From the NCBI GenBank assembly GCA_048882045.1, contig JBHLRZ010000011.1, positions 26,778 to 90,777 of the forward strand: DNA of 64,000 bases, in the 5' to 3' direction. The position numbers and the translations under genes were made by a program. Source of the DNA: Candidatus Thorarchaeota archaeon (GTDB lineage: Archaea; Asgardarchaeota; Thorarchaeia; Thorarchaeales; Thorarchaeaceae). Below are positions 25,377-52,958 of this stretch, one piece after another. Below the pieces are notes generated by a model that made no database searches, had not been told where the DNA came from, and worked only from the letters and a program-made list of their open reading frames with translations. How positions within the stretch are numbered: the first letter of the stretch is position 1; the number at the start of each line of letters is the position of its first letter.

Positions 25377-25490
25377 TGGCGCTGGGGGCGAGATTCGAAC
25401 TCGCGAGTGCATAGCACACTGGATGTTTGCAGAATGCTGGATCAGCTATCATTAGCAATCCAGCGCCCTACCAGGCTAGGCTACCCCAGC
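25377..25490 (-). tRNA. tRNA-Ser(GCT) with canonical 37/38 intron (25425-25452)
   Basis: Full cloverleaf with long V arm, BHB helix TTGC/GCAA, G73, encoded CCA. Confidence 0.92.
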
Positions 25491-36633: not shown

Positions 36634-37992
<1,359 letters not shown>

Positions 37993-44183: not shown

Positions 44184-44291
44184 TGGCGGGCTCGGCGGGA
44201 TTTGAACCCGCGGCCAATCCCCATATGGGAGATCACTCTCACATATTTCAGGTTAAAAGCCTGCTGCGCTACCTAGCTGCGCCACGAGCCC
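44184..44291 (-). tRNA. tRNA-Lys(TTT) with non-canonical intron near 43/44 (about 44217-44247)
   Basis: GCAGG-CTTTTAA-CCTG anticodon arm, hairpin insert before the variable loop, T arm, encoded CCA. Confidence 0.88.
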
Positions 44292-44610: not shown

Positions 44611-44800
44611 ATGCAAGCCCCTGTAGTGTATGACCTGCTTCTGAGATTGTGAGTGAACCACAACTGTAAGAAACCTCTGTGTTTCGCCCCTCTCTTGCCA
44701 GTGTCACCACCATCCAGCATTTTCATGAAAATGCTAAACTTAGCAAGAGCATTGTCAACGTTCATTGGGATGGGATCCCTCCTGAAGACCTGGCATCTTT
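44611..44800 (-). ncRNA. Putative TnpB omega-RNA (scaffold plus guide); 5' limit uncertain
   Basis: Dense hairpins downstream of tnpB (20-nt palindrome 44716-44735, CTCTTGC/GCAAGAG, GAAAC/GTTTC, TTGTG/CACAA), ending ...GGTCA then the anti-tRNA-Asp sequence. Confidence 0.55.
44617..44630 (+). pseudogene. 5' 14 nt of tRNA-Asp (split exon and/or TnpB guide)
   Basis: GCCCCTGTAGTGTA, identical to the first 14 nt of the tRNA-Asp at 51900-51887. Confidence 0.75.
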
Positions 44801-46438
44801 CTCCTGTCTTGATGTCGGGGCATCACTCCCAACTACAGAGAGAGTTTCCACAGTATTTTCCACGGCGGGGTCATTATCACCCTTCCCAGATTCATCGCTG
44901 AAGCTGAAAAGACTCGTCTGAGTATGGTGAACAGCCGCGGACTCTCCAAGACCCGATGTTTGATCTTTAGAGGAGAGTAAGGACTTCCCTTGAGAAGACT
45001 TCTTCTTTCGGGCTTTCAGTCGTGCACGTTGAGTCTTATCTAAGACCCTAGTCCACATACCTAGTCCTCTCACAGAGTGCAGTGACTTTGTGAGCTTGAG
45101 CATACGTGCTGCGATGTTGATACTACCGTTCCTGTCAGCATTGGTCTTGTGTCCGCAGGATGGACAGTGGAAGTAGTTCTGCTTGGGTCTCCTACCCTTA
45201 CTTCCACACTTCCAGCACATGATGGAAGTCCAAGCCTCAGGAACGGCTTGGAACCTCGCATCCTTGCCATCGACTTTCCAACCAAGCTGAGCAAGTCCAT
45301 GTTCCAGACTTTCAGTTATCCGGGCAAAGGCCCATGAATTTATCATAGCCCTAAACTTGCGACCTCGGTAGTTTCCTCTTCTGGCACGCATTCGTATATT
45401 CTTTAGACGACCGATGGCTACATAGAGTGTGTATTTCTCAGAGAGTATAGAGATGCAATCAAGAAGTTGTCGAACGAGAACCCTGTCATACTCTTTCGAC
45501 ACATTTTCTCTTTTATTCTTCATCTGACGGAGCCTTTCTGCAATCTTATCGTGTGTCTGTCCGTTCTCTCTCCTGAGATGTAACTCTCTCTGAAGGTTGG
45601 CAACAAGTCGGTCATATTTCTTTATGACTTTGACCTTCTCTTTTTGGATGAAGTATCTTGTTTCCCTCGTCTTCTCTGGAGTTAGGAGAGTTGAACATGC
45701 GGCCTTCTCGATGCCGAGGTCGATTCCAAGTATCGCTACAGGAAGTCCACTCATGTGTAAGTCATCAATCGCAACCCTGACAGCTATTGTCACCCACCAC
45801 TTTCTGAATCGATCAGTGAAGATCTGTACAGCCTTTACATCTCCACGGCGAAGTTGATTCAGGTGAAAGGATGAAACCTTCAAAGGAATGACTAATCTAT
45901 CATGAAATGTACGCCCAGCCTGTACGGAGTCAAGAGAATCCCTTATGTCTAGCCACCAGCGAGCTGAAGATGTACGTTTTTCAACAAGTCTGAATCGTTG
46001 AGCAAAGACCCATCTGGGAATACGTCGACTTCTATTGATTGATGCAGGGCGAGAAGCTCTCAATCCATTCTTCATTCTGAGCTTAAGATAACTCTCATAC
46101 AAAGAAACTGCAATCTGTCTGCACTCGGTCATCTCGTTTTGAGATATTCGAGGGAACCTTGCCTTGAAGTCATGAGGTACGGTTAGTCTCCGACTATAGC
46201 CCGCCTTGACTTGGTGTGCAGTCATAGTGAGCTTATCCAGCTCACCATCATCAATCCGATTTTTCTTACGACCTGTCAACAACTTGTCTTCATGTTGTTC
46301 AATAATTCCAAGGAATGCACGAATCACTCTAGTGTCTCGCCCAATGGTCTGCCTAAGCCTCTGCTTAGTCCTCTCGGTCATGGCTTCCCAGTTGATTGGG
46401 ACCTTCACCGAGATTGTCACACCCTTGGACCGAGCCAT
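44762..46438 (-). CDS. tnpB: TnpB/Cas12f-like RNA-guided nuclease with rearranged RuvC site
   Basis: GIDLG (D240), AIGRL (G343 at RuvC-II), VPEAWTS (E401), CWKC/CPSC Zn ribbon, NADRN (D435). Confidence 0.88.
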   Translation of the reverse strand: MARSKGVTISVKVPINWEAMTERTKQRLRQTIGRDTRVIRAFLGIIEQHEDKLLTGRKKNRIDDGELDKLTMTAHQVKAGYSRRLTVPHDFKARFPRISQNEMTECRQIAVSLYESYLKLRMKNGLRASRPASINRSRRIPRWVFAQRFRLVEKRTSSARWWLDIRDSLDSVQAGRTFHDRLVIPLKVSSFHLNQLRRGDVKAVQIFTDRFRKWWVTIAVRVAIDDLHMSGLPVAILGIDLGIEKAACSTLLTPEKTRETRYFIQKEKVKVIKKYDRLVANLQRELHLRRENGQTHDKIAERLRQMKNKRENVSKEYDRVLVRQLLDCISILSEKYTLYVAIGRLKNIRMRARRGNYRGRKFRAMINSWAFARITESLEHGLAQLGWKVDGKDARFQAVPEAWTSIMCWKCGSKGRRPKQNYFHCPSCGHKTNADRNGSINIAARMLKLTKSLHSVRGLGMWTRVLDKTQRARLKARKKKSSQGKSLLSSKDQTSGLGESAAVHHTQTSLFSFSDESGKGDNDPAVENTVETLSVVGSDAPTSRQEKDARSSGGIPSQ

Positions 46439-46685
46439 CGCTTTGTCTTTCCTTATTAAGTTCTGACCTGTTTCAGGCCAGTTGAGTTCACTCCAATCTT
46501 TGTCTGAAATTGGAGTAATTAACTCATAGATTTATCATACAAGTTTCCTTATTAAGTTATTATGAAAATTTATTATAAACTCTTTAATAAAGAAAATAAG
46601 AACTGATAAGTCTATTTTTATAAATTTTAGACTTCTGAATAAGTATGAAATACTTATAAATAAAATCGAGAGGAGAATAACTGGA

Positions 46686-49600
46686 GTGTCCTGTTTGGGG
46701 CGAAGAACTCAGGAATTCAGACCGAATGCAGTTCTAGCTACTGCACTTTATTCAGGATTATCAGCTCTAGTCTGGTTGGCAAATAGACGAAAGAATAGAC
46801 AGACAGAAGAAATCTTTGAGAAAATTAGAAACAAATGGAAATCTATCCAAGTGAATAAGAAAATGGATGGATCAAGCCGCCCGCATGATTTCTCTAAAGT
46901 TCAGAAGATAGAATCCCCCCTCAGAAAGCTGAATCTACGTATGCTCTGGCTTAGCACGAAACGATACGGCAACAAAGAGAGGAAGCGAGTATACAGCTGG
47001 AAAGAGGGCACCATTGGAGAACTCAATAGTCTACTGAACTATGCTGGAGCAACACTACGAGATATCGTTGTTCCACGTTATCCATTCCCAACCCCACAGC
47101 TCTACGAAATCCGAAAATATCCAGATGGAACAAAGCAAGTCATTCCAAAAGATGTGGCGGACAAGGTCCCAGCAGCACTTGGGGTGAAGACTCACTTGAA
47201 AGCGGGATATCGAGGAAACTCTAAAAATCCCAGAGTGTTATTGACACATCCAACATTACCAGCCATGGACTTTGGAGATATGCTACGAGCTCATCTCATT
47301 GAACTCTGTCGACAATGCTTCATTCATTGTGTACCTCGAACTGAGTCACATCGATACATTAGACTGCTGATTCATAGACTGACCCCATTTCTCGATTGGG
47401 TGTACACACGAGGAAAGACAGGTCGCAAGGATTTCTCCCCTTGCGCAGACAGAGAATTGAGAAAGATTGTACTTGAAATCAGGAACAACTACAGCAGACA
47501 CATTAGGACTAGAGAGAGAATCAGTAAACCAGTCGAAGATGTTCCTCAAGACTTTGGAATAGATGCTCTCAAAGAACAGGTTGAAGCAATACAAGAAACA
47601 TCAGAAGACAGAAACACCAAGAAAAAGTGTAAGACAATTCTTCAGCACATTGAGAAAAGAATCGTCACACACAGAGAAGTGGAAAAGTTCCTTGAAAACA
47701 TCATGAGTAGCGTACAACTAGAAGGGAGCAACTGGCACAGAGTGCTGCTCTCTGGATATCCTCAACCTCGCTCACTCAAAGAGGCCATCTTTGCCGGAGA
47801 CTATCTCCTTCAGAATCCTTCCGGGTTTCAGTATTTTGCTGAAGTTCCGGTCACTGGAATCCAAGGATCAGGAAAGATTGACCTTGTCCTTTTCGTTCGC
47901 ATTCGTTGGCGTGACAGCCATATCTGGGCTCCCATCATGATTCTCGAGTTGAAGACCAAGGCTGGATTCGACTTCAACCTGTTTGGTAAACGTCCCCGTA
48001 CGAAGAAACCCAATGTATTCACACCAGTCTTGAACGCTTGGAAAGAACTTCTCAAGACATCTGAATGGGGTGAAACACTTGGTTCAAAGCCCCCAACAAT
48101 CCATCTTGACCAGATAGATGCATATGAGAATGCTCTGTTATCAGAGTATCATTCAATCATCGGTGAAACTATTGCTTTTAAGCAACTCTGGAAAGGAGTG
48201 GTCACACTTGATGTTTCTCAGGAGTATGAAGACACAAAGCAAATGTTCGATCACATCATCTCCGATTTGGCTAATCGAATAATGAAAGGAGAATTCAATG
48301 GGCGGTGGAAGACACTCAAATTCAAGGACAAGCCTACGGAGCAGATAGCTCCTCGAGTAGCCATTACAATGACTCCAGCTCAGGGTCCTGTGGATGTACT
48401 AAAACGTGTCAGTCCCCTCGAAAATGTTCTATTCGAAGACCCCTTTGCTGATAGAGTGGAGGATGACACCTTCTTCACCCAGTACATTTCACTATCATCT
48501 CCAACATCATCCGGCAAGAGTGCAGCATGGTTTGCCAAGAACTGGCATCTCTTGAACCACCTTGCAGAGCTGGAACGGGCTTTGGACACAGAAACTTCTC
48601 TGACTTGGATTGATCTAATTGGTGATTTTCCAACAAAGAAACTGATAGAGAAGCGATTTGGACTTGATAATCTAAAGAAGAACAAGCTGATTACGAATTC
48701 AGAATATGCAAAACTGAGAAGTCTGTTAGAACGAGTCACCTTTGTCAGTCTTAGAGAGGATATTGATAGATTTCTCATCGACGGGAAACAATCAGGAATC
48801 GAGAGGGCGAGGTCTGCAATCACAGCAGCTCTCGAATCTGAGTCAGAGAATCAAATTACAGTTGTAGATGGCTGGTCGGACTTGGAGAACATGACTCCTG
48901 CGACTCATAGGAACAATCTACAGGTGCTTGAACTCTCACTGCTTCAGATTGTCAAGGATCTCATGAACGAGGTAATCTGGACCGATACAGGAGTTGACCT
49001 TCCACAGGTTTCCGAACTCTATCAACGGAACAGCCCAAGTCCATTCTACTACACATCTCCTAGGAAACAGGTCATTGACGAGGTTCTATGGAATGTGCCC
49101 ACAGCTCCTCAAAAGATGGGGTGGCAGACCCCGGAGTATGAGGACAGTCGAGTAATCATCCAGGACCTACCAACAGAACAAGATCCATGGTCCACGGTCA
49201 TCCATGTACCGCATCTCAAGGGTCTGGGTCGTAAGTTCAGCAAGGCTTCCGTTAGAAGTCCTATTGTCAAGATTGAGAGGCAAACTGGTGACCTGAATCA
49301 ACATGAAAATATGCATGGAAGGTCCTTTCGAAGTTCATCCATCCAGGTGCGTTCTGACACTATTGACATGACCTCCTTGGAAGAAATCACAAAGCATGCA
49401 TTTATCCTGATTCCAAGTCTTCTGAGACCTAGAGATGGACAACCACTGAGTCAGGTCAATGAACATAGTGTTGATTGGTCAACGACCTATCACAATGTCA
49501 ATGTAAACAGTGTTCATCCAAGTCTATCAAGCAGACTGCATCTTGACGTGGACAGAGAGCCACCACATCCAAATCGAATAGGAATTGGTCATGAGGGAAT

Positions 49601-51776
49601 CTACGTTGAGGCAAGGTCCATCACACGTGGGTGGATTCACAAGGAAACTGATGAAGAGGAAGAAGAATCGGTAACGATCACCCGAAGACCAGCTTTTACT
49701 TATTCATCTGAATCAACTCATATCGATACGATTGATACCAGACGAAGAGAAGTCCTACGGTTGTCATACGCTGCTGAGTTCCTCAGTAAGAGACCAACTT
49801 CCTACCGCTCTCTCTACAGAAAGATCGTTTCACTCTGTACCTATGACAACAACGAAACTACTGAGGAGAATCTACTGGGAATACTCACTCAAGTCAGAGA
49901 GGTCATTCTTCACCGAACTGAGACTCAGCGTCTCTGGACACTTCTCCTCAATGACAGGTTGAATCTTGGAAACCTACTGAACTCTGTTAACCTGAAGACA
50001 CTGCAACAAGCATTGGGTCATAATCCTGAACTCATGGATCTCTATGGGATGAATCTCTTTCTTGGAGTGCTTGATGTAGCAACTAGGGTCCTGAGAGATG
50101 CAGAGTCCCCTCATTGTAACGATCTATGGTCATCAGTTGCACGATGGCAGCTCTATCAGATTGGTTTTAGGCAGCAGGATGAGGGAGAATTCGAACACCG
50201 GTATGACTTTCAAGCAATCCACTCAAATCTCACATGGAGGGCGAAACAGATGAAGAAGACAACTTCGCGGATAACCACAAGATTTCCTGAGCAACACGGA
50301 CTATTGCTCTTTCAAGAGAAGAGTGATGGTGGCAGTATCTGGCTACTGTTTCCCTCAATCAAGAAGACTATATTTGGTGCGCTGTTGGAGGAGCAGATGA
50401 GTGCCATTCTTCGCTATGGGTGGCACAGAGGTGAGATAGATCCTCAAAAACTCTCGAAGAGTGCAAAAAGTGCCCTGTCAAGAGACGGGTGGATGGAATA
50501 TCCCATTGTTCTTGTTTCTGTGAACAAACAACACGTGCTCTACACAAAGGACGAGGAAGAATGGGTTCAGTCTGGTCTGTTGGAGTATGGAAATCCTCCA
50601 AAGGAGCAGAGTCAACCTGCACGTTGGATCAGACTGTCGCAACCGTCACCCGAAACTCTTGCAGTCTTGTATGGGTACAGGCCAGGTTCCTTTAACACTG
50701 AGGTCGAAATAGAGTGTGACGAAGTGTTAAAGGAGGCTGCTGAGTGGAGTGGTGTAGTAAGGGAGGTTTCGTGTTTTCTCACCATTGACCCTGAGAAGAA
50801 GGTTTACAGGATTGACCTGAATGAAGGCTCAAAGACCATAGCAAAGAAGGAAACTCAGTATACTGATGAAGCGATTAGATTCCTCAGATACCCCCAGAGA
50901 ATTGGAGAATACTTTTCGACTGCAGACGGTACATACCTCAAGTGGGATGCTCGGAAAGACATCGAGTATGATGAAGTGAAACTCAAGAACAGAGATGGGA
51001 AGTATGACTTCTATCACTTGTCAGTGTTCAAGCCACTCATCCACAGATACTCGTTCTTTTCAGACAGCTACAAGTTACCTTCGACCTGTGAGGACTTCTT
51101 GATGACCAAGGCTGGTGAGGACATAACTCTGAGAATAGTAGTGGATGAACAACGAAAGGACCGAGGTTACAAGAAGTATCTCAAGGTCCGGCTAGATGGA
51201 CTACAGGGAAGAGGACATCTGATTGGTCTTGAGATGGAGGACATGGGGATATTCGATGTGGCACTATTGGCAGAATCCGGACAACTTGTGGACTCGGATT
51301 CTGGGAAGAGGTGCGATGTCACGATTAATTCAAAGGCTCTTGTTAGTCTTAGAGTGGTTCATCTCCTCTCTGATTATCCACGAACTCAAAACTCAATAAT
51401 TGGGGATATAGAGGAACTTGAATCAGCTGAATTGGAAGAGTCAAAATTGACTGATGACGAACTGTTCGAAATCGATGATTCAACACCAGAACTTAGGTTT
51501 GTCAGAGTCCATGTGGAGGAATCTTTACGACAGAGATCTTTGGATGCGATTGCACATCTGTGCAATGTAGATGACGAAACTGACTTTGAGGAGGTGGTAG
51601 TAGTATCAGTATCATCTGAGATTGCAAAGAACCAATCGGTATCTTTTGACTTCATCGAGCATGAAGTCAAGCTCAATCTGAGAGGTCGTAGAGTAAGCAA
51701 TGTCACAATAGAATCCATCTTGAAAGAGGTAGAAGATGCGTTTGAAAACAAGGGAGTAGCAATTGATTATTACTAG
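46686..51776 (+). CDS. Giant uncharacterised protein with PD-(D/E)XK nuclease and P-loop-like regions
   Basis: E386..IDL(D399)..ELK(421-423), QIDAY; SPTSSGKS near 605; VVDG near 726. Confidence 0.7.
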   Translation: MSCLGRRTQEFRPNAVLATALYSGLSALVWLANRRKNRQTEEIFEKIRNKWKSIQVNKKMDGSSRPHDFSKVQKIESPLRKLNLRMLWLSTKRYGNKERKRVYSWKEGTIGELNSLLNYAGATLRDIVVPRYPFPTPQLYEIRKYPDGTKQVIPKDVADKVPAALGVKTHLKAGYRGNSKNPRVLLTHPTLPAMDFGDMLRAHLIELCRQCFIHCVPRTESHRYIRLLIHRLTPFLDWVYTRGKTGRKDFSPCADRELRKIVLEIRNNYSRHIRTRERISKPVEDVPQDFGIDALKEQVEAIQETSEDRNTKKKCKTILQHIEKRIVTHREVEKFLENIMSSVQLEGSNWHRVLLSGYPQPRSLKEAIFAGDYLLQNPSGFQYFAEVPVTGIQGSGKIDLVLFVRIRWRDSHIWAPIMILELKTKAGFDFNLFGKRPRTKKPNVFTPVLNAWKELLKTSEWGETLGSKPPTIHLDQIDAYENALLSEYHSIIGETIAFKQLWKGVVTLDVSQEYEDTKQMFDHIISDLANRIMKGEFNGRWKTLKFKDKPTEQIAPRVAITMTPAQGPVDVLKRVSPLENVLFEDPFADRVEDDTFFTQYISLSSPTSSGKSAAWFAKNWHLLNHLAELERALDTETSLTWIDLIGDFPTKKLIEKRFGLDNLKKNKLITNSEYAKLRSLLERVTFVSLREDIDRFLIDGKQSGIERARSAITAALESESENQITVVDGWSDLENMTPATHRNNLQVLELSLLQIVKDLMNEVIWTDTGVDLPQVSELYQRNSPSPFYYTSPRKQVIDEVLWNVPTAPQKMGWQTPEYEDSRVIIQDLPTEQDPWSTVIHVPHLKGLGRKFSKASVRSPIVKIERQTGDLNQHENMHGRSFRSSSIQVRSDTIDMTSLEEITKHAFILIPSLLRPRDGQPLSQVNEHSVDWSTTYHNVNVNSVHPSLSSRLHLDVDREPPHPNRIGIGHEGIYVEARSITRGWIHKETDEEEEESVTITRRPAFTYSSESTHIDTIDTRRREVLRLSYAAEFLSKRPTSYRSLYRKIVSLCTYDNNETTEENLLGILTQVREVILHRTETQRLWTLLLNDRLNLGNLLNSVNLKTLQQALGHNPELMDLYGMNLFLGVLDVATRVLRDAESPHCNDLWSSVARWQLYQIGFRQQDEGEFEHRYDFQAIHSNLTWRAKQMKKTTSRITTRFPEQHGLLLFQEKSDGGSIWLLFPSIKKTIFGALLEEQMSAILRYGWHRGEIDPQKLSKSAKSALSRDGWMEYPIVLVSVNKQHVLYTKDEEEWVQSGLLEYGNPPKEQSQPARWIRLSQPSPETLAVLYGYRPGSFNTEVEIECDEVLKEAAEWSGVVREVSCFLTIDPEKKVYRIDLNEGSKTIAKKETQYTDEAIRFLRYPQRIGEYFSTADGTYLKWDARKDIEYDEVKLKNRDGKYDFYHLSVFKPLIHRYSFFSDSYKLPSTCEDFLMTKAGEDITLRIVVDEQRKDRGYKKYLKVRLDGLQGRGHLIGLEMEDMGIFDVALLAESGQLVDSDSGKRCDVTINSKALVSLRVVHLLSDYPRTQNSIIGDIEELESAELEESKLTDDELFEIDDSTPELRFVRVHVEESLRQRSLDAIAHLCNVDDETDFEEVVVVSVSSEIAKNQSVSFDFIEHEVKLNLRGRRVSNVTIESILKEVEDAFENKGVAIDYY

Positions 51777-51792
51777 TTCATGAGTCAAAAAG

Positions 51793-51900
51793 TGGCGCCC
51801 CCGCCGGGATTCGAACCCGGGTCTCAAGAGTGACAGTCTTGAATGCTAATCCGGATACTGTAAAACATCTACAGTATTGACCGTACTACACTACAGGGGC
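51793..51900 (-). tRNA. tRNA-Asp(GTC), intact, with D-loop intron (51849-51878)
   Basis: CAAGA-CTGTCAC-TCTTG, CCGGG-TTCGAAT-CCCGG, G73, CCA; 30-nt hairpin insert in the D loop. Confidence 0.92.
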
Positions 51901-51995
51901 TGCGGTTCGGTTGGAGCAAAGTCGATTTTCTATTAAACTCATCGGTCGAGAACATATAACTACGGACGAGTTCTATTAGATATTGAGGAGTTATT

Positions 51996-52628
51996 GTGAA
52001 AGATGATGATTCACCTGATAATTGGATTCAGGTTAGATTATTCTACAATGCCTTTGAAAATGAGAAGATAAGAAAGCTAGATCAACGGGTTTTAGAAGTA
52101 GGTTCAGATCTAGAGAATGAAGAGCTTGCAGAAAGTTGGCACATTAGATTCTCCGGACCTTACATCTCATTACGTGTCAAAACTAAACCTAGAAATCGAG
52201 CAGAGGTTGAAAGCCGAATTGAAGCATTGAAAAAAGAATTGACTAACGAGAATCTAATCAGAGATTCTAAGATTGATTTGAAAGAATTTCTCCAAAGTAA
52301 TGAAGTCCCTTCCGATCTCGAATCATGGAAAGAATGGAACATCTTGATGGAGATTCTCAACTTATGTAGTCGAATCGTCAGGATGGTACATAAACTGGAG
52401 AAACACGAACGTAGATTGTATATGACACATAACAAAGTAATCCATCACTTCTATAACATGGCACATATTCAGGACACATTCATTCCCTTTCTAATGAAGT
52501 ATCCATATGACAGTATCATTGGCTTTCTGGAGGAGGGGGAGGGAGAGAAACTCACGAGGATTGTAAAAGACTTAGGTGCAGAAGAGAAACAATGGTATAT
52601 GAAATTACATTTTGGTCAGATGATTTAA
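51996..52628 (+). CDS. Hypothetical protein, weak resemblance to lantibiotic dehydratase C-terminal domain
   Basis: WIQVRLFY...WHIRFSGPYISLRV...IHHFYN. Confidence 0.45.
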   Translation: MKDDDSPDNWIQVRLFYNAFENEKIRKLDQRVLEVGSDLENEELAESWHIRFSGPYISLRVKTKPRNRAEVESRIEALKKELTNENLIRDSKIDLKEFLQSNEVPSDLESWKEWNILMEILNLCSRIVRMVHKLEKHERRLYMTHNKVIHHFYNMAHIQDTFIPFLMKYPYDSIIGFLEEGEGEKLTRIVKDLGAEEKQWYMKLHFGQMI

Positions 52629-52692
52629 TCATTCGCAAAATAAGGGGTGCTATGGAATCCAGAATCCATGGTTATTCGAAAAAGTAAGGATT

Positions 52693-52847
52693 TGACGGTC
52701 TAGCATTCAAGACTGTCAATCCAAAGTGGTTGGCACCTTGGAACGGATCTCTTGAGACTCTCTCATTCGTGAGAGAGCCAGAGAAAGACCCGGGTTCAAG
52801 AGGAATCATGAATTCCATGGTTTTTGGAAATCCCGGCGGGGGCGCCA
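52693..52847 (+). tRNA. 3' part of split tRNA-Asp(GTC) with three BHB introns (52719-52748, 52755-52785, 52801-52830)
   Basis: Removing the three inserts gives GACGGTCTAGCATTCAAGACTGTCACTCTTGAGACCCGGGTTCAAGTCCCGGCGGGGGCGCCA. Confidence 0.85.
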
Positions 52848-52958
52848 CTCTCTATTTTCCACTATTCTTCATTATTAAAATTCTGAGTTCCAAAAGGACC
52901 ATTAGGAAGGAGACCGTTTGTTTCGACCAAGTTTTGATTAATTGTGGAAAGGGTAGAG

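Follow-up and report, generated by a model that had tools for sequence, protein, structure and literature searches.

What kind of protein is encoded by the very large gene that lies back to back with a tnpB gene in a Thorarchaeota genome, and what does it do there? The gene is found in a stretch of 64,000 nt from Candidatus Thorarchaeota archaeon (GenBank assembly GCA_048882045.1, contig JBHLRZ010000011.1, positions 26,778 to 90,777), below called the window and numbered from its first letter. The preliminary description of this stretch, made from the sequence alone, saw in the 1696-residue product a PD-(D/E)XK nuclease and a P-loop next to about 900 residues without recognizable domain, and proposed either a mobility factor partnering TnpB in an element without a transposase, or a new defense or toxin protein. 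The analysis presented here makes it, on balance, probable that the protein is an integrase of the 'Asgard Cas1' (aCas1) type with a built-in RecB-type nuclease, which mobilizes a TnpB-carrying element of Thorarchaeia, located here in a tRNA-Asp gene. The gene and the parts of its product are as follows.

46686-51776, + strand: the large gene, probable 'aCas1' (open reading frame and translation; Cas1-like/PD-(D/E)XK/RecA-like product)
46707-47453, + strand: predicted N-terminal Cas1-like alpha-helical catalytic domain, residues ~8-256 (structure prediction)
47763-48380, + strand: putative PD-(D/E)XK nuclease of the RecB/Cas4 type with the QxxxY motif, residues ~360-565 (motifs, model)
48459-49325, + strand: RecA/Rad51-paralogue/KaiC/DnaB-like domain, residues ~592-880 (structure comparison)
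49698-50228, + strand: possible second Cas1-like helical domain, non-catalytic, residues ~1005-1181
50283-51773, + strand: C-terminal beta-rich region, residues ~1200-1590, and small alpha/beta end domain, residues ~1600-1696

The gene is a single open reading frame (ORF), as described before: one uninterrupted frame of 1696 codons spans positions 46686-51776, and its homologues are nearly full length. Translation may start at GTG 46686 (1696 residues) or, three codons downstream, at TTG 46695 (1693 residues, 'MGRK.QEF'), the latter being the start used by the homologues and by the database copy; a GAGGAG box at 46670-46675 is compatible with either.

Scans of the whole protein against Pfam, NCBIfam and PADLOC gave nothing usable (one chance-level match to Csm5), and the family hidden Markov model found no match below E 0.5 among PDB sequences. 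AlphaFold2, given 55 diverse relatives, modeled residues 4-880 with a predicted local distance difference test (pLDDT) score of 88 and a predicted template modeling (pTM) score of 0.88. Exhaustive structural comparison of this model returned two sets of matches, one to the Cas1 catalytic fold and the other to the RecA-like fold. The absence of a recognizable domain from a large part of the protein holds for the three profile collections, but structure prediction puts the N-terminal ~250 residues in the Cas1 fold, which the preliminary description had overlooked.

The candidate Cas1-type active site, assigned from the sequence, consists of E76, H188, D195 and D198, together with R101, N114 and R201. 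Counted over the 55 diverse relatives, E76, R101, N114, H188 and R201 are kept in all, D195 in 53 and D198 in 54, and by these counts the Cas1-like catalytic set appears to be the best-conserved feature of the entire protein. In hhalign comparison with 20 Asgard Cas1 proteins, E76 falls on the Glu of the Cas1 'iEG' motif, N114 on 'NalL', and LD195-F-x-D198-xx-R on 'LDlxExfR'. The structural matches start at Cas1 residue ~81-114.

The nuclease motif set had been recognized before, and its residues are as given then: E386, D399, E421-x-K423 and Q476-x3-Y480. E386 is conserved in 53 of the 55 relatives, and D399, E/D421, K423, Q476 and Y480 in every one. The secondary structure of the model follows the alpha-beta-beta-beta-alpha order of the PD-(D/E)XK core, and the closest named ESM clusters all belong to the PD-(D/E)XK clan (score 0.88, a lead only). 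Alignment of the domain with 21 Asgard Cas4 proteins by hhalign was not significant, the ExK strand alone being aligned, and residues 345-565 contain no conserved Cys, hence not the iron-sulfur (Fe-S) cysteines of Cas4 proper. Judged by its motifs and by the core order of the model, the domain would belong to the RecB/Cas4 branch of PD-(D/E)XK nucleases.

The P-loop did not hold up as described. Its strings, SPTSSGKS (residues 605-612) and VVDG (726-729), do exist and lie within the RecA-like fold, but they are degenerate: the Walker A Lys (K611) is retained in 12 of the 55 relatives, and the Walker B Asp (D728) in 26, with Ser in 25. Because the Lys is so seldom kept, the domain seems to be a pseudo-ATPase in most members, where ATPase activity is unlikely, and not a conserved NTPase; it probably serves as a scaffold or as a DNA-binding or oligomerization module. 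Further downstream, residues ~994-1200 gave no significant hhalign match to Cas1 or to the protein's own N-terminal domain, Foldseek comparison of the C-terminal model gave no match at E≤0.001, and ESM atlas features of residues 1195-1600 gave no usable match. A second, inactive Cas1-like domain in this C-terminal region may mimic a Cas1 dimer.

The large gene is strictly linked to tnpB. The coordinates of all matches to the large-gene family were compared with those of all TnpB-like matches, and 23 fetched modules were viewed directly. A divergent TnpB-like gene lies upstream of every large gene with readable upstream DNA (at least 35 loci, with 25-91% identity to the query, from at least 14 genera), mostly across a gap of ~244-310 bp and sometimes of ~1.3 kb. 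In the window this neighbor encodes 558 residues (44762-46438, -), in the divergent orientation reported earlier, and is followed by an intron-containing tRNA and then by the rpoB-rpoA'-rpoA'' operon. The apparent exception, genome G152, has a more divergent TnpB-like partner of 722 residues. Genes flanking the modules are unrelated from locus to locus.

The reverse linkage is not strict: genome G103 has seven TnpB cassettes, some of them without an intact large gene. Such 'solo' cassettes were considered as counter-examples and rejected. One of them (L088) keeps a ~30-nt relic of the 5' end of the large gene, followed by a subtilase gene, and another (L086), beside ordinary metabolic genes, lies between inverted copies of its 3' region.

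The surroundings of the gene in the window allow an occupied site to be compared with empty ones. The features involved are the following.

44617-44629, + strand: nt 1-13 of the ancestral tRNA-Asp, immediately next to the end of the putative omegaRNA (gene intact in G215 and G098)
44630-45070, - strand: putative omegaRNA and right end (nucleotide conservation in 19 modules, covarying hairpin stem)
44762-46438, - strand: TnpB-like gene, 558 residues, with a zinc ribbon (Pfam/NCBIfam, PDB alignments, family alignment)
46451-46558, + strand: conserved ~85-nt intergenic segment with flanking repeats (seen in all 23 modules inspected)
51793-51900, - strand: tRNA-Asp(GTC), complete, with a D-arm intron (partial Rfam match; sequence comparison)
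52696-52850, + strand: 3' part of the split tRNA-Asp (from nt ~18), with three intron-like inserts; right boundary

The element of the window sits within a tRNA-Asp gene and brings a whole spare tRNA-Asp with it. In two congeners, G215 and G098, the tRNA-Asp beside rpoB at exactly this site is intact, while in the window ~8.07 kb of inserted DNA (44630-52695) interrupt the same gene (+) at nt ~14-17. This DNA comprises the omegaRNA-TnpB cassette, the large gene, a complete inverted tRNA-Asp with its promoter region, and an ORF of 210 codons (51996-52628, +). The CCA end of the inverted tRNA-Asp lies 16 nt past the stop of the large gene, as noted previously, and the promoter region that goes with it (to ~51959) is a homologue of the one that the resident gene has in relatives. 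In genome G146 the tRNA-Asp is likewise split by the same block, at 92.8% identity and with a different right boundary; the 210-aa ORF, whose only match is a sub-threshold one to Lant_dehydr_C, is absent from this orthologous block.

Elsewhere, inverted right-end copies of ~400-460 bp bound a ~12-kb module (L015, 7874-8393 and 19473-19874), and a ~5-kb segment that holds TnpB and metabolic genes but no large gene is likewise enclosed by such copies (L086, 1444-1903 and 6195-6631). Genes for tRNA seem to be recurrent insertion sites of the modules, because tRNA sequence abuts several other ones: tRNA-derived sequence or whole tRNA genes adjoin the TnpB right end or the 3' end of the large gene at L021, L023, L022, L030, L033 and L014 (15246-15320).

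The putative omegaRNA was delimited by nucleotide conservation, which extends from ~300 nt within the 3' end of tnpB to ~115 nt beyond its stop codon; this region is present in multiple copies in relatives. It closes with a terminal hairpin with the loop TTCACTCA and a stem that covaries among loci. In the window the hairpin element GTTCACTCAC (44658-44649, -) is followed by ~11 nt and then by CAGGTCAT (44637-44630); across loci, ~11 nt are followed by the motif (C)AGGTCA(G/T) and then by unrelated, often tRNA-derived sequence. In the window, CAGGTCAT is followed by nt 1-13 of tRNA-Asp in reverse complement, and so the putative guide reads the tRNA in antisense. The GTTCACTCA motif was found in 15 of the 19 modules, the window included.

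The TnpB itself keeps D240 of RuvC-I and D435 of RuvC-III, with Gly343 in place of the RuvC-II Glu and a conserved alternative Glu401 (VPEAWTS), while the divergent 722-aa partner keeps the canonical RuvC-II FEDL and lacks the alternative Glu. By these residues the partner TnpB is of the published rearranged RuvC-II type, and the putative nuclease is probably active, because the loss in RuvC-II is paired with Glu401, as in that type. A nuclease-dead regulator of the TldR kind was also considered and rejected, since the lost RuvC-II Glu covaries with Glu401.

Cas1 homologues of Asgard archaea ('Cas1H-Asgard-1, -2') were reportedly associated with TnpB already by Makarova and colleagues in 2020. 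Altae-Tran et al. 2023 (PMC10691335), in the passages of that article devoted to such loci, report that some TnpBs accompany 'Asgard Cas1s (aCas1s)' in two Asgard groups, that a conserved GTTCACTCA motif, likened to the start of a CRISPR (short palindromic repeats that are clustered and regularly interspaced) repeat, lies downstream of tnpB at these loci, that TnpBs of a rearranged RuvC-II type have Glu changed to Gly, and that the transposase of a probable new transposon family is likely aCas1. The loci studied here share with those passages the restriction to Asgard archaea, the Cas1-related gene beside tnpB, the downstream GTTCACTCA, the occasional flanking repeats and the rearranged RuvC-II. 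Because the motif, the gene pairing, the occasional repeats and the Glu-to-Gly change are all present, the large protein very probably belongs to the aCas1 family as published, an assignment made by motif and gene pairing and not by accessions.

Compared with the same passages, nothing in the locus is demonstrably different, and to that extent the aCas1-TnpB pairing is already known from the literature, as a genomic observation only. The PD-(D/E)XK, RecA-like and possible second Cas1-like domains find no mention in these passages of PMC10691335, nor do the splitting of a tRNA gene with a spare tRNA and the lack of co-divergence with TnpB. What is added here is a confident domain map (Cas1-like, RecB-type nuclease, dead RecA-like and possible second Cas1-like domains, as predicted), the finding that the two catalytic sites are both nearly invariant, a linkage to TnpB that is quantified and free of exceptions, and the insertion into tRNA-Asp as read from occupied and empty sites. 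Two further additions, described below, are the non-co-divergence of the TnpB cassette and the large gene, and a conserved intergenic segment enclosed in 12-15-nt repeats.

The family is narrow in distribution. A word-indexed search retrieved 56 near-full-length relatives with 34-100% identity, colinear end to end, the named ones among them all being Thorarchaeota 'hypothetical proteins'. The family profile (residues 4-1190), scored against 1.84 billion representative sequences, matched 209 clusters, of which 190 scored below 1e-10; the protein is conserved from end to end in ~200 sequence clusters, nearly all from one Asgard family (Thorarchaeia). Because only 209 clusters matched among so many representatives, the family appears closed at the level of sequence, without a bridge to other proteins. 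Among 301 Asgard genomes, it is present in 50 of the 76 of the window's family and in 3 of the 11 of one other family, and was not found in the remaining 28 Asgard families sampled.

Ten of the 24 congeners are without the large gene, some of these genomes being 92-93% complete, and several genomes carry two or more diverged copies (lower bounds, as two candidates were scored per genome). The patchy occurrence and the diverged paralogues therefore mark the gene as accessory, lineage-restricted and multi-paralogue, and not as housekeeping; a housekeeping role suggested by the rpoB neighborhood was dropped for the same ten congeners and for the flanking genes that vary by locus. Truncated relics of the family exist, and a second module in the window's own genome is decayed (L020, contig 21, G000:C21, 4751-7311): its TnpB-like gene lacks the first ~158 codons and abuts a 399-aa ORF whose start corresponds to residue 1486 in the large protein (long, TPR-tailed subtype). 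In contigs from sequencing runs, the stretch with the large gene is present in metagenomes of sediment from two or more studies and in a ~6% diverged strain, and an excision joint was not seen in those contigs.

Taken as an integrase, the protein would unite in a single chain a Cas1/casposase-type domain, a RecB/Cas4-type nuclease, a degenerate RecA-like domain and a large C-terminal region. The Cas1-like site (E76/H188/D195/D198) would join the ends of the element DNA to the target in the manner of casposases, the PD-(D/E)XK nuclease would cut or trim DNA ends, and TnpB with its omegaRNA would cleave target alleles still free of the element and so let it be copied in or kept. The integrase activity, its substrates and the cooperation with TnpB are what we infer from the predicted folds and the genomic context.

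Set against this, the proposals made at the outset fare differently. The partnership with TnpB, in the sense of genetic co-occurrence, is strongly supported by the divergent TnpB-like neighbor at every locus with a readable upstream flank. A role in mobility fits the Cas1-like domain, the empty sites of congeners and the aCas1-transposase proposal in the cited passages of PMC10691335, and the view of an element without a transposase was probably mistaken, the model making the large protein itself a likely integrase. For a new defense or toxin protein no specific support emerged, as no PADLOC family was matched and no toxin-like features were seen. The homologues did not turn out to be a known family unrelated to TnpB or tRNA loci, and the nuclease motifs did not turn out to be variable.

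Several observations weigh against the integrase reading. The assignment to aCas1 is not by accession. The predicted N-terminal domain belongs to the Cas1 superfamily by its modeled fold and its candidate catalytic residues, and not by a Pfam-level match or by the N-terminal beta-sandwich: Pfam Cas1 (PF01867) gave no match at E≤1, a six-frame search of the window's genome with PF01867 was blank, the model opens with two long helices (10-32 and 38-61) where Cas1 has the sandwich, and the hhalign score of the domain against Cas1 is weak (probability 4%, P=0.0096). A second right-end copy was not found for the window element, and no consistent pair of terminal inverted repeats (TIR) and target-site duplications (TSD) was found around the whole module. 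No near-identical copies of the large gene were found inside one genome, so that the copies give no sign of recent transposition.

Moreover, the two genes do not evolve together. Over 253 pairs of modules (23 modules), the identity of TnpB and that of the large protein are uncorrelated (Spearman 0.10), and in G103 (L084-L090) the ~1.9-kb TnpB cassettes are 77-87% identical in DNA, the adjoining large proteins being down to 27% identical. The absent co-divergence suggests that the cassette moves or is exchanged independently, perhaps by repeated insertion at one fixed spot next to large genes that differ greatly, and therefore the large gene and tnpB may not be one transposing unit. The intergenic segment is a related peculiarity of these modules. 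It has the layout TGACCTG-N13-GAGTTCACTCC hairpin and is bracketed by direct repeats of 12-15 nt, TATA-like, identical within a locus and different between loci (L015, L019, L021-L036, L084-L090); in the window, the repeat is the 12-nt CCTTATTAAGTT, with copies at 46451 and 46547. Its length is that of a casposon-type target duplication, yet the enclosed segment is conserved. Neither the missing co-divergence nor the bracketed segment is explained by a simple picture of one transposon with two genes.

These same peculiarities can be read in favor of other roles. A Cas1-like and Cas4-like protein might, instead of moving the element, act as in CRISPR adaptation, which uses this very pair of domains, installing or replacing short DNA beside the omegaRNA scaffold and thus re-targeting TnpB. 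The (C)AGGTCA(G/T) repeats around ~30-nt segments after the omegaRNA hairpin of the window, the tandem partial copies after that hairpin in G146 and L089, the match of the intergenic 12-15-nt repeats to the TSD size of Cas1 and casposases, the independent divergence of TnpB cassettes and large genes, and the likening of GTTCACTCA to a CRISPR repeat start in the aCas1 passages of PMC10691335 all point this way. But the loci showed no array of variable spacers, the seemingly 'hypervariable' bases beside GTTCACTCAC covary as a hairpin stem, unlike spacers, the tandem copy of G146 repeats the same 11-mer and is a duplication, not a new guide, the segment within the direct repeats is conserved, not variable, and the orthologous loci of the window and G146 share the same guide region, so that we hold such rewriting of guides to be quite improbable. 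A related and very unlikely variant is a single-chain 'adaptation' enzyme with Cas1 and Cas4-like parts that writes or exchanges guide-proximal DNA of the TnpB omegaRNA locus, or that places whole TnpB cassettes into a fixed site beside itself; if true, the Thorarchaeia modules would be an extant intermediate that links OMEGA transposon nucleases with adaptive type V CRISPR-Cas.

It is also unlikely that the pair is an immobile chromosomal system for defense or maintenance, in which a TnpB-derived targeting protein is coupled to a large nuclease effector (compare Cascade-Cas3 and exapted TnpBs). The patchy distribution with several diverged paralogues per genome, the fast evolution of the large protein beside a conserved TnpB, the lack of near-identical copies, an architecture of large nuclease and ATPase-like domain that is frequent among defense proteins, and the want of canonical Cas1 and Cas4 in the searched genomes of the window's genus would all suit a domesticated pair. 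Yet no PADLOC family was matched, the copy in the window interrupts a tRNA gene and brings a spare one, which is the behavior of a selfish element, mobility is indicated by decayed relics and by contigs that break at the cassette, the RuvC site of TnpB appears rearranged, not dead, and the guide region is directed to a tRNA of the host instead of foreign DNA. Homing by TnpB of IS200/IS605 elements relies on homologous recombination, and this dependence, together with the union of a RecB-type nuclease and a RecA/Rad51-paralogue fold in one chain, would suit a cargo protein acting on the double-strand breaks that TnpB makes, its nuclease resecting the ends, its RecA-like domain pairing strands and its Cas1-like domain being a DNA-binding relic. 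The Walker motifs of the RecA-like domain are not conserved, while the Cas1-like catalytic set is the best conserved of the whole protein, as expected of a working site and not of a relic, and a repair helper of this sort seems very improbable.

With the integrase reading retained, its place among known systems can be specified. Compared with casposases (e.g. that of Aciduliprofundum boonei, PDB 6opm), the protein is ~5 times larger, adds the nuclease and RecA-like domains, has no recognized N-terminal beta-sandwich or C-terminal helix-turn-helix, and is missed by Pfam Cas1. The element is not a casposon, because PolB is absent from among the neighbors and there is no clear TIR with a 14-15-bp TSD around the whole element. 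Cas4-Cas1 fusions of CRISPR adaptation (PDB 7mi4, 8d3p) likewise have Cas1-like and Cas4/RecB-like modules in one chain, but here the order is reversed, with the Cas1-like domain first, and the nuclease is without Fe-S cysteines; nor is the element a CRISPR adaptation module, because it has no Cas2 and no array. In the window's genus (g1), its own genome included, canonical Cas1 was not found in any of 7 genomes nor Cas4 in either of 2, while other genera of the family do have both. As in type V-K CRISPR-associated transposons (Cas12k with TnsB/TnsC/TniQ), an RNA-guided protein of the TnpB/Cas12 lineage is genetically coupled to a transposition enzyme, but the integrase would here be of the Cas1 type and not a DDE enzyme, TnpB probably keeps its nuclease activity, to judge from its residues, and the coupling is seen at the level of genes. 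Finally, unlike Rad51 paralogues, Elp4-6 and KaiC-like proteins, the RecA fold is here embedded in a nuclease/integrase of 1700 residues, with the Walker A Lys in 12 of the 55 relatives.

CRISPR memory and casposons both have Cas1 as their integrase, and Cas12 descends from TnpB. The natural coupling of Cas1 and TnpB in Asgard archaea bears on the assembly of CRISPR-Cas from mobile elements, and it could also provide a compact pair of RNA-guided nuclease and integrase. The system is a good experimental target, given its domain map, its two intact catalytic sites and the two features left unexplained.

Large Cas1 ORFs detectable by Pfam in G041 and G058, genomes of another Asgard family, were considered as relatives and rejected, being fusions of a DEAD helicase and Cas1 beside RAMP genes. 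These helicase-Cas1 proteins (1336-1363 aa, DEAD/DEAH, with C-terminal Cas1; L081 6035-10126 and L082 5766-9776 in G041, and G058:C9) resemble published ARAMP systems.

In the window, ARAGORN overlooks the tRNA-Asp at 51793-51900, because its intron is non-canonical, and Rfam detects part of the gene. Intron-containing tRNA genes or parts overlooked by ARAGORN lie, this one included, at 44187-44291 (-), 25380-25490 (-), 51793-51900 (-) and 52696-52850 (+), of which Rfam detects the first three, the last having been recognized by eye from the sequence. RNA polymerase subunit A'' (36634-37989, -) has a Lys/Ala-rich N-terminal extension with a weak Pfam match to HC2, which is histone-H1-like.

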